From Octopus vulgaris (taxonomy: Eukaryota), in NCBI GenBank assembly GCA_951406725.2, contig OX597833.1:19282001-19346000 (forward strand): DNA of 64,000 nucleotides. Direction: 5' to 3'. Every line of letters begins with the position of its first letter. Within the stretch, counting starts at the first letter, position 1. Made by a program: the position numbers and the translations under genes. This document shows positions 4,530 to 46,376 of this stretch, piece after piece. The notes beneath the pieces are model-generated. The model was not told the origin of the DNA, did no database searches, and saw nothing but the letters and a program-made list of their open reading frames with translations.

Positions 4530-6304
4530 TTATCGTTGGGTATCTAATGATTTGGGCTGCCAGACTGGGGCTGTTGATTTAGGAAGTGCTGGCCGATTCC
4601 GAATGATATCTGCGGCTTTTTCAGCAAGCATACAAGTCGGACCGTTTAAGTTGCCACTGACTACACTGGGCATGATTGAGGCATCTACGACACGAAGATT
4701 CTCAATTCCATAGACTTTAGTGTCAGGACCGACCACAGCCATATTATCTGATGGATCTCCCATCTTGCAGGTACAACATGGGTGATAGTTACTGTCAGAC
4801 TTCTGACGGATAAATGCATCGATTTGTTTATCACTTTGGACATTGGGACCAGGAGCTAGTTCCTCACCTCTATAAGGATCAAAAGCTTTCTGTGCAAATA
4901 TCTCTCTTGAGAGTTTGACATTATCTCTCATATCTGCTACATCTTGTTCGGTTGTAAGGTAGTTAGCAACTATAATTGGATGAACCTTAGGGTCTTTAGA
5001 CTTCAATTTCAAATAGCCTTTACTTGTAGGTCTCATAGGACCCACATAAAACTGATAAGCATGACATGGGCCTGCTTTGCGACCATGATCATCCAAAGCA
5101 GATGGCAGAAAGTGGAATTGAATATCTGGATGTTCTACACCAGGTCTACTACGAATGAAACCTCCTGTTTCAAAATGAGATGTAGCACCATCACCTGTAG
5201 ATGTCAGAAACCATTGAAGTCCAATTTTAATCATGACATGTGGAAACTTCCATTGCGCTTTGTACAATGTGATTGGTTTAAGACATTTCTGTTGTAAGCA
5301 GACTACAAGATGGTCCTGAAGATTTGAGCCTACGCCAGGTAAATGATTAACAATTGGAATGTCCAGTTTTTTAAGGTCATCAGCATTGCCAATACCAGAA
5401 AGCATGAGAAGTTGTGGGGAATTGATAGCACCACCACTTAGAATCACTTCCTTGTTGGCCCTTACTTGGTGAATAACACCTTTCTGTTCGTACTCAATGC
5501 CAACTGCTTTGTTACCTTCGAAAAGGATCCTCCTGGCAAATGCATTTACTTCAGTGTCTAGGTTTGGTCTTTTTAACGACTTCCTCAGGTAAGCACTAGC
5601 TGTACTCCACCTCTTACCCTTGTGAACAGTCATGTCCATCCAACCAAATCCTTCTTGCTGGTAGCCATTCATATCATCGGTGAATGGGTAACCAGCTTGA
5701 ACACCAGCATCAATGAAAGCCTGGTGCAGCTCGTTATTAGACTTACCCTGAGATACATGCAAGGGCCCTTCTCCTCCCCGATATTCATCAGGACCCAGTT
5801 CATGTGTCTGAGATTTACGGAAATAAGGTAAACAGTCTGCATATGACCAGTTCAAAGCCCCTTCCTTTTCCCATCGGTCATAATTAAGAGCATGACCCCG
5901 AATATACACCATTGCATTTAGAGAAGATGACCCACCCCAAACACGGCCCCTTGGCCAATACATTACACGGTTGTCCATGCCTCTCTCCGGTTCTGTCATG
6001 TAGTACCAATTATATTTATCATCACATAGGTTGTATATCAGAGCTGCAGGCATGTGGATCTTCCAAGTATAGTCCTTTGGACCAGCTTCCAATAGAAGTA
6101 CAGTATTGTCAGCATCTTCTGTAAGGCGATTACTGAGGACACACCCTGCAGACCCTGCCCCAACAACAACGTAACTATATTCCTTGGTGGCTGTCACTGA
6201 GTCTTTTGAAGATGTACTAAAATAACGACCAGTCGATTGGGTGCCTGAGAAAGGAGGTCGATGATGGCAGTGGGCAGTCAACATACCAGGGTTTATCGGC
6301 AGGG
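4530..6304 (-). CDS. CHDH: Terminal GMC exon copy C: intact, active-site-diverged choline dehydrogenase-like paralog
   Basis: Open frame, 1775 nt, same acceptor. About 26 aa differences from A: LQDHLE to LQDHLV, SAYHP to SNYHP, QVHV to QFYV. Catalytic His (YHP) and Asn (GNLN) are retained. Confidence 0.9.
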
Positions 6305-6624
6305 CTAGAGGGTAAGAGAAAGATGAATACAAAGTAGGATATAGTAGTATAAATACAGCAGATAACAGTTATATATAAACTCACTATTAAAAGCAGACAA
6401 ACAGGTAATTTGATAACTTCTTCCAGGACCAAGATTAGAAATTTAAGGGAAAGGGACAGTTGGTTATATCAACCCCAGTAATTTACTAGTACCTATTTTA
6501 TGAACCACGCAAAGAACGAAAAAGGAAAAGCATATGATGTGAACTCAAAATATAAAGTGTCATGTTTAAAAATGAAGGAGCATGGCCTTATGATTAGGGT
6601 GTTGTACTCGCGATTCTGAATACC

Positions 6625-45600: not shown

Positions 45601-46376
45601 TTTATTACTCAGACTTGTCATGAGTTTAAAGCAAGTTTGTCACATTTTAGCGGATAAACTGCTAACTTGAAAAAATCTGTTACATGACTTTAACAATTAC
45701 AGAAATACAAAGTTTGAGAGAGAAAAAAAGTAGGAAACAAGGTGTAAATTATTATAGAAATAATTTTTGTAAGAATTTGTCATTGCAAAGTTATTTCATA
45801 ATCAAACAATCTTTTTCATTTAGATTTAAAACTGACCAAAAGAAAATAAATTTTTCTTTTTTTTTTTTTACAGAAATTCCAAAGATTTTCCTAAGTAAAT
45901 TAATAGCTAAATGTTGTAGATACATTTATTTAAATATGGATGCTAACATAACTACATAAAAAAACTGAGCTGTTCATCCATGATCCGTTCACTATTTAAT
46001 CCCAAAACACAGCAATTTATTGCCCAGACATAGCTATTCTTTCTCACCATACTGTCTCTACATAGGTGAGAGAACAGCAATGGAGGAAGAAGCAAAGAAC
46101 AATATTGAAGCATCATAATTTTAATATTTTATAATGCACAGCAAAATATTGCATTTCAATAATTGCTCATACTAATACACATACACACATACATATGCAA
46201 AAAACATATGTTCAAAGATTGGGTAAACCATACGGTAGCAAGTACATACCTGTAGAGGAAATCCTGCAGGCGCTTAAGACAGAGGCATCGGCCACAGCAG
46301 AACAGGAGCTGAGTCTTGACAAACTTTTGCTACGGCAACGAGATGTCAGCCTCAGAGCCTTAGGTAGATGCAACAT
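26679..46376 (-). CDS. CHDH: Spliced gene model: mitochondrial-targeted HAD-HAD-choline dehydrogenase (GMC oxidoreductase) fusion, ~1188 aa; exons 46250-46376, 44897-45092, 41857-42672, 37775-38427, 26679-28453
   Basis: All four introns have GT..AG ends with matching phases (1,2,2,1). Summed CDS is 127+196+816+653+1775=3567 nt = 1189 codons including TAA. HAD motifs and GMC motifs fall in one frame. Confidence 0.8.
29190..29534 (-). mobile_element. Internally deleted mariner element
   Basis: [28 protein letters not shown] matches the mariner YSPDLAPxD motif; TIR-like end tattgggctgtctggaaagttcgtgcc. Confidence 0.85.
29883..30377. repeat. Long inverted repeat (~220-bp arms 29883-30106 and 30157-30377, ~50-nt loop)
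   Basis: Arms read as reverse complements by eye, e.g. gatagacaaagaacatgctggc/gccagcatgttctttgtctatc. Confidence 0.92.
37775..38427 (-). CDS. Coding exon 4: rest of the degenerate HAD domain 2
   Basis: ORF 37764-38444. Acceptor tttttcattgcag|G; donor AAAAAG|gtaatg (phase 1). Paralogous to exon 3 ([14 protein letters not shown] vs [21 protein letters not shown] vs GVLSGVG; ADHI). Confidence 0.9.
39676..40075 (+). mobile_element. Helitron/Helentron-like non-autonomous repeat; related end inverted near 51995-52028
   Basis: 5' actagcagtatagcccggcgttgctcggg with short GC hairpin; 3' gctttatatataaagat end. Confidence 0.5.
40693..41526 (+). mobile_element. 5'-truncated RTE LINE: ORF2 C-terminus followed by a tandem-unit 3'UTR and (gat)n tail
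   Basis: Translates [22 protein letters not shown]...GRGRPRKT*, then continues into the repeat family of 18248-18643. Confidence 0.8.
41857..42672 (-). CDS. Coding exon 3: rest of HAD domain 1 (motif II ICTAD, motif III EPKP, motif [11 protein letters not shown]) and start of HAD domain 2 (IIDLHGTL)
   Basis: ORF 41826-42626 extends to acceptor ccttacag|G at 42672; donor AAAAG|gtattt. Length 816 nt, phase 2 to phase 2. Confidence 0.9.
43331..44394. mobile_element. Non-autonomous piggyBac-type element in intron 2
   Basis: TTAA flanks, 12-bp TIR ccctttcgttac/gtaacgaaaggg, and internal direct duplications (43558-43618; 43857-44135). Confidence 0.85.
44897..45092 (-). CDS. Coding exon 2: linker plus HAD domain 1 motif I (VIFDKDGTL)
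   Basis: ORF 44893-45147. Acceptor tgttgcag|AC is phase 1 and compatible with exon 1; donor GAAAA|gtaagt is phase 2. Contains the DxDGT motif. Confidence 0.8.

Follow-up and report, generated by a model that had tools for sequence, protein, structure and literature searches.

The stretch of Octopus vulgaris DNA analysed here (64,000 nucleotides, called the window below; GenBank assembly GCA_951406725.2, contig OX597833.1, positions 19,282,001 to 19,346,000) carries a gene in which two phosphatase-like HAD domains are fused to a choline dehydrogenase (CHDH) of the GMC oxidoreductase family. The exon that encodes the GMC part is present three times behind a single set of HAD exons, and the predicted substrate pocket of the copy furthest downstream is remodelled. 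A first reading of these letters, the original prediction, had taken the locus for a candidate cassette in which one promoter could serve three interchangeable last exons.

The locus

The constant part of the gene lies on the minus strand, as do all exons and flanks described below. Coding exon 1 (46250..46376) begins with the ATG and encodes an N-terminus rich in arginine, serine and leucine, a predicted mitochondrial presequence that matches the N-terminus of the O. sinensis protein XP_029647642.1. Since exon 1 has an acceptor at 46432, there is a 5' untranslated region (UTR) exon further upstream. Coding exon 2 (44897..45092) contains motif I of HAD domain 1 (DKDGT, an intact DxDxT). Coding exon 3 (41857..42672) contains the remainder of this domain and the beginning of HAD domain 2, the motif I of which is degenerate (DLHGT). 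Coding exon 4 (37775..38427) encodes HAD domain 2 and ends in a phase-1 donor at 37775. The DxDxT motif of domain 1 is kept and domain 2 is degenerate across molluscs; no NCBIfam model names the HAD substrate.

When the HAD exons were searched against the whole window with tblastn and blastn, no further HAD exon was found, which agrees with the earlier claim that none stands beside the two additional GMC exons. Across the 2.8-Gb genome the HAD search returned this gene and one other region, on contig C19 (about 617500-618200), where a processed copy lies in broken form. This pseudogene fragment is 94-96% identical to exons 3 and 4 and contains stops and a frameshift. Because exons 3 and 4 are joined in it without an intron, it is an independent sign of exon 3-4 splicing.

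Downstream lie the three GMC exons: copy A at 26679..28453, copy B at 8182..9956 and copy C at 4530..6304. Each measures 1775 nt from acceptor to stop, with no indels and no internal stops, and self-BLAST together with a listing of open reading frames (ORFs) reveals three long GMC ORFs. Nucleotide identity is 97.6% between A and B, 97.0% between A and C and 96.5% between B and C. All three copies share the same final 24 intron bases, acceptor included, and the phase-1 end of exon 4 yields a 1188-aa ORF without stops when joined to any of them. Hence, the original prediction was right that three intact exons of the same orientation follow one HAD set and that they share an acceptor in phase with the donor at 37775. 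The locus has one set of common exons followed by tandem homologous terminal exons, each with a stop and an acceptor of the right phase. A genome-wide GMC search (2.8 Gb) found these three as the only close copies, and the 10 kb that follow downstream contain no further GMC copy. On C4, at about 103.285 Mb, there is a distant GMC oxidoreductase gene with several exons and 45-48% identity (two match regions). An exact look-up of five ORF fragments from the window gave no match.

All three copies pass the choline dehydrogenase family cut-off of 732 bits (A 760, B 760, C 752; TIGR01810, NF002550). The GMC fold is supported, and the best structural match is BetA 9LQ0. We number residues from the first full codon of the GMC exon, which is residue 599 of the fusion. 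The catalytic His/Asn pair, H507 and N551, is present in A, B and C, together with H397, and the acid that matches choline oxidase E312 is E333 in A and B and V333 in C. The whole 590-aa CHDH domain of copy A is a single exon (28453-26679), which is unusual in an intron-rich genome; on a decapod genomic contig (P0266) CHDH is also one long ORF.

Remodelling of the predicted substrate pocket in copy C

Copy C carries 19 private amino acid substitutions, 18 of which fall into codons 330-512 (4767..5315), the substrate-binding segment, where synonymous divergence is raised as well. Clustering of this degree was matched in none of 100000 simulations. Seventeen of the 19 changes are also found in the C copy of O. 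sinensis. Within the segment (183 codons) C differs from A at 37 nucleotides, with no stop, no indel and all catalytic residues kept. The substitutions are rare elsewhere: in a panel of 164 non-Octopus homologues with at least 60% identity, the C states of E333V, V403L and H419Y do not occur at all and N505 occurs in six sequences.

Pocket positions were assigned by sequence alignment to the choline oxidase of Arthrobacter (2JBV). According to the passages of PMC10980864 that deal with this enzyme, W331, H351, V464, H466 and N510 contact betaine, and E312 stabilises the charge of choline. The positions of Glu312, Trp331 and Val464 are among those substituted in C (they align with E333, L377 and A505, respectively), and V403 lies near the gate residue M359. 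H397, H507 and N551, which align with H351, H466 and N510, are unchanged in C. We rejected H419 as the counterpart of H351, since H351 pairs with H397 and H419 with T376. Position 89, which maps to W61 within one residue, is M, K and I across the three copies in both octopus species. An alignment-based structure model of C (pLDDT 81) confirmed the fold only.

As the catalytic core is kept and pocket positions are changed, a different substrate suggests itself: judged from its sequence, C likely oxidises a different alcohol than choline dehydrogenase A. The notion that the copies are interchangeable is therefore not confirmed: C differs at predicted substrate-pocket residues.

Duplication history

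The flanks of A and C differ by 14-17% substitutions. Between the exons themselves, synonymous divergence (pS) is 0.034 in codons 1-329 vs 0.114 in codons 330-512. Because the flanks are so diverged and codons 1-329 are not, we read the locus as an old duplication of the last exon, which gene conversion would since have homogenised except for the pocket segment of C. The 3' flank of C (3764..4529) is homologous to the 3' UTR of A at 16-17% divergence, has a repeat inserted at 3878-4217 and contains ATTAAA; in B the A-like flank is truncated. On the upstream side only about 90 nt of intron are common to A and B/C, and neither a HAD exon nor a recognisable promoter region was copied.

B combines features of the other two copies. 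Over a tract of 535 nt it is identical to C, which none of 10000 simulations reproduced; its second half, including the pocket, is A-type, and its 3' flank is that of A with 1 mismatch in 116. Its upstream flank (9957..11337) is 3.5% diverged from that of C over 1.1 kb and is bounded by a dispersed repeat. B also carries M89K, as well as R537H at a site that is invariant in 164 of 164 homologues. We infer that B is a younger mosaic of A and C under weaker constraint.

The repeat in question is about 400 bp long, abundant and present in both orientations (7532-7934, 10909-11337, 11747-12163, 19560-19952, 23470-23880, 38753-39162, 46605-46998 and 63097-63524). Two copies of it bound the B/C duplication unit.

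The three types in other octopuses

Named proteins of the same 90% cluster come from Octopus vulgaris, O. sinensis and O. bimaculoides. For O. sinensis, RefSeq lists three proteins on one 55-Mb sequence: the A fusion of 1188 aa, a protein resembling B (K89, C509) and one resembling C, with the same diagnostic residues. The two species differ by 2 amino acids in A, 7 in C and 16 in B. In O. bimaculoides we found two exon starts, two exon ends (one with N505) and the middle of the exon on a 1697-bp contig, a pattern that would be expected of a collapsed multi-copy exon.

Parallel changes in bivalves

In a tree from a quick search, which left out two broken O. bimaculoides models and two rows below 60% identity, the pocket-altered duplicates of Ylistrum, Argopecten, venerid clams, Mytilus and Saccostrea each fall within their own lineage, and octopus C is nested inside Octopus. 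The derived sites of the bivalve duplicates overlap with those of C beyond chance; in Ylistrum, for example, 5 of 10 eligible sites are shared, compared with 21 of 398 overall. L377F is found in all six bivalve duplicates examined, A505N in three and Y335C in three. The six were chosen after the shared residues had been noticed and two of them are sister proteins, hence the p-values are optimistic. The same sites are changed in bivalve duplicates that arose independently. In Mercenaria, Ruditapes and Argopecten there are pocket-altered paralogues that consist of the GMC part only and have N-terminal leaders of their own.

Scallops carry two or three CHDH copies per chromosome or scaffold (P0016, P0024 and P0238 in Argopecten, P0023 and P0032 in Ylistrum, P0018 and P0025 in Pecten). 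One of the copies is pocket-altered in Argopecten and likewise in Ylistrum, a parallel expansion.

The fusion and its internal linker

HAD-HAD-GMC proteins of about 1190 aa are found in Argonauta, gastropods, bivalves, the annelid Owenia, nemerteans and Macrostomum, and shorter HAD-GMC forms in amphioxus and hemichordates. The fusion of a HAD-HAD module to choline dehydrogenase is real and ancient. At the protein level, Argonauta and a decapod have one fusion type each. In the literature covered, which excludes subscription journals, we found neither a choline dehydrogenase-HAD fusion nor a duplication of choline dehydrogenase in molluscs or bivalves. A CHDH gene does appear in PMC9795677, in the relevant passages only as a brain cell-type marker.

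Inside GMC exon A, Met7 is followed by a presequence-like leader that ends in R-Y-F-S (28365..28433). The same leader is present in B and C and is predicted to be either an internal site for the mitochondrial processing peptidase (MPP) or a targeting signal in its own right. The motif R-x-F/Y-S, which was picked after the linkers had been inspected, occurs in 35 of 38 fusions and in 1 of 606 other 60-aa windows. The linker is otherwise poorly conserved in sequence; it is poor in acids and rich in serine, threonine and arginine, like the N-terminal presequence (D+E make up 2.6% vs 14.5% in the HAD body). The fusion thus has both a predicted N-terminal presequence and a conserved internal presequence-like junction with an R-2/aromatic motif. 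In the parts of PMC8734313 concerned with polyproteins, the same signature is described at the MPP-cut junctions of Arg5,6 and others. This suggests that the fusion may be cleaved at the internal linker after mitochondrial import. Since the leader lies behind Met7 within the GMC exon, it is carried by every copy, and each copy could be self-sufficient.

Transcripts

Transcript contigs were drawn from 4 of 24 listed runs and for the copy C region only. The runs had been found with copy A as the query and are thus selected for A; none is recorded as RNA, and 14 are RNA by guess. In two of the four (X10 and X4) the junction between exon 4 (donor at 37775) and a GMC exon is spanned by a contig of 58 nt. 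The contig includes 28 bases of the GMC exon, which are identical in A and C; the first 148 nt of the exon are common to both, and the first difference is at exon base 149. For this reason neither short-read contigs nor annotation based on short reads can separate A from C at the junction. X9, X4 and X5 gave no contig over the exon body, X9 and X5 none across the junction and X4 none from the A intron, and the T that B has at exon base 7 was seen in no contig; as the records are filtered, we do not count these blanks as evidence.

Two contigs run unspliced from upstream sequence into a GMC exon. The one from X10 (28454-28870) leads from the intron into exon A at a depth of 14, compared with 22 for the spliced junction, and could reflect intron retention, nascent RNA or a start within the intron, which would give a short CHDH from Met7. 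The one from X4 has B/C-type upstream sequence. It carries six differences and is without the 34-nt gap of C, and four of its five listed change types are also among the differences between B and C; it is not assignable to either copy.

Annotation in O. bimaculoides adds a further splice form. In RefSeq isoform X1 the exon 4 donor skips exon A and is joined to an acceptor equivalent to position 26186, which results in a HAD-only protein. The acceptor and a short terminal ORF are found in the A 3' flank of O. vulgaris (26164..26186), where 8 of 8 positions match the tail of X1. Further HAD-only isoforms in O. bimaculoides RefSeq end by read-through at the exon 4 donor. Two O. bimaculoides models in UniProt share the same HAD part and have two different GMC starts and ends, one of them with N505.

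Discussion

Our results show a locus that is more interesting enzymologically than the original prediction saw, and less established as a cassette than one might have hoped. We tentatively favour the following explanation, while giving it somewhat less than an even chance. The last exon was duplicated in Octopus, A is spliced, and the remodelled C is probably a low-level or tissue-restricted alternative last exon, used when the exon 4 donor skips A. In mechanistic terms, the fusion uses A as its spliced last exon and C would be functional. C looks functional and must then be expressed, and because no promoter came with the copy, it would be reached by alternative splicing from the exon 4 donor. 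The precursor would be imported into mitochondria and cut at the linker. The HAD part would be a carrier common to all forms, and exon choice would set which oxidoreductase is released. What stands of the proposed cassette is that the copies are real and in cis in two species, that their acceptors are intact, that no promoter region was copied and that an O. bimaculoides isoform skips exon A. The two UniProt models of O. bimaculoides, in which one HAD part is joined to different GMC starts and ends, are suggestive too.

Several observations weigh against this explanation. Among the contigs of the four runs no junction of exon 4 with B or C could be assigned, and the sole contig covering the exon body, from X10 with a depth of 48.6, agrees with A at each of the 39 exon positions listed. 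The unspliced X4 contig has a depth of 6.5 vs 240 for the junction, and it fits a 5' UTR belonging to B or C itself as well as it fits read-through. B and C are listed as separate proteins of 584 aa or 629 aa in O. sinensis RefSeq and in the protein records of this genome. The collapsed assembly has left both UniProt models of O. bimaculoides broken, with about 360 aa missing, and they may be alignment artefacts, and the common acceptor may be a conversion tract instead of a product of selection. Finally, a ratio of nonsynonymous to synonymous divergence (pN/pS) above 1 was not found; it is 0.47 in the C segment, hence positive selection is not formally shown.

One could also argue that C, and perhaps B, is a standalone gene with a local, probably repeat-derived promoter, a start at Met7 and its own mitochondrial leader. 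It would then be an ordinary tandem paralogue with a changed pocket. We consider this a real possibility, albeit a less probable one. The in-frame Met7 with a presequence-like leader in every copy, the unspliced contigs of X4 and X10, the separate protein annotations and the GMC-only bivalve paralogues would all fit. However, the promoter region of the parent was not copied, conservation of Met7 does not extend to Argonauta, and a Met within 60 aa upstream is present in only 15 of the 35 linkers that bear the motif. Moreover, the O. vulgaris counterpart of the 5' exon in the O. sinensis B model (17889-17776, minus strand) has Leu for Met and no adjacent GT donor; this exon is probably an ab initio prediction. 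It is improbable that B and C are silent or nearly so and were kept open by gene conversion and chance. The absence of B- or C-type exon bodies from the exon-covering contigs (one run), the evident conversion tracts and, for B, the 16 differences between species and R537H would agree with silence. C does not fit this explanation well: its 183-codon segment escaped conversion and is still open, pN/pS there is about 0.5, the catalytic residues are all retained, both species have the same changes, and its changed sites coincide with those of the independent bivalve duplicates. The suspicion that B and C are haplotype or assembly artefacts, raised by 97% identity and tandem position among repeats, seems to us almost without merit. 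The flanks are 14-17% different, B and C come without HAD exons, and the O. bimaculoides starts, ends and 1697-bp contig fit a collapsed multi-copy exon. The presence of all three types on one chromosome of an independent O. sinensis assembly refutes it in practice.

Taken to its full extent, alternative splicing to C would lead to a bolder proposal, which we regard as unlikely in its entirety. One promoter and one HAD-HAD carrier would be spliced to alternative whole-enzyme last exons. MPP, cutting at a linker conserved in Spiralia, would release choline dehydrogenase in one case and a new alcohol oxidoreductase in the other. The pocket of the latter would have converged at least five times in molluscs toward an osmolyte or dietary substrate.

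Independently of how C is expressed, A and C form a young, 95%-identical enzyme pair that isolates about 18 residues between choline dehydrogenase and a likely new specificity. As the same sites are changed in bivalve duplicates, they might offer a handle on a mollusc metabolite, plausibly one of osmolyte chemistry. The HAD-HAD-CHDH fusion, widespread and unannotated, is a candidate animal MPP polyprotein and possibly a route from phosphocholine to betaine. If exon 4 does join C, then the locus is a case in which a cephalopod diversifies an enzyme through duplicated last exons. None of these three points turned up in the literature searched. Should C be a standalone gene, then the locus is a tandem paralogue array and the point about last exons falls.

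Comparison with known systems

The original prediction likened the locus to UGT1 and the clustered protocadherins. This comparison is the wrong way round, because those systems vary first exons that have their own promoters. Clustered protocadherins also undergo conversion among their variable exons. A closer parallel is pipe of Drosophila, in which each variable region encodes a sulfotransferase-like domain. The passages on it in PMC9013439 and PMC3291829 describe common 5' exon(s) and tandem duplicated terminal regions that are mutually exclusive; PGRP-LC and CG42235 have 3' variable regions as well. Unlike pipe, for which ten isoforms have been demonstrated, the octopus locus is a candidate cassette known from exon anatomy. 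In addition, each of its variable units consists of one exon of 1775 nt that brings its own Met and leader, and a second enzyme module forms its constant part.

Vertebrate UGT1A resembles the octopus locus in that tandem duplicated exons containing the substrate-binding site are joined to shared exons, as outlined in a section of PMC9013439. There the first exon varies, each version with its own promoter, whereas in octopus the last exon varies behind one known promoter. The octopus linker in turn carries the junction signature of MPP-cut mitochondrial polyproteins, of which yeast Arg5,6 and Atp25 and Rsm22-Cox11 of S. pombe are examples in the polyprotein passages mentioned above. Those examples are fungal or plant, whereas the octopus protein is animal and its cleavage predicted only. 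All three octopus copies resemble BetA/CHDH choline dehydrogenase in scoring above the family cut-off. They differ from it in being part of a family that in Spiralia is fused behind two HAD domains, and C furthermore lacks the acid equivalent to Glu312 and is changed at the positions of Trp331 and Val464.

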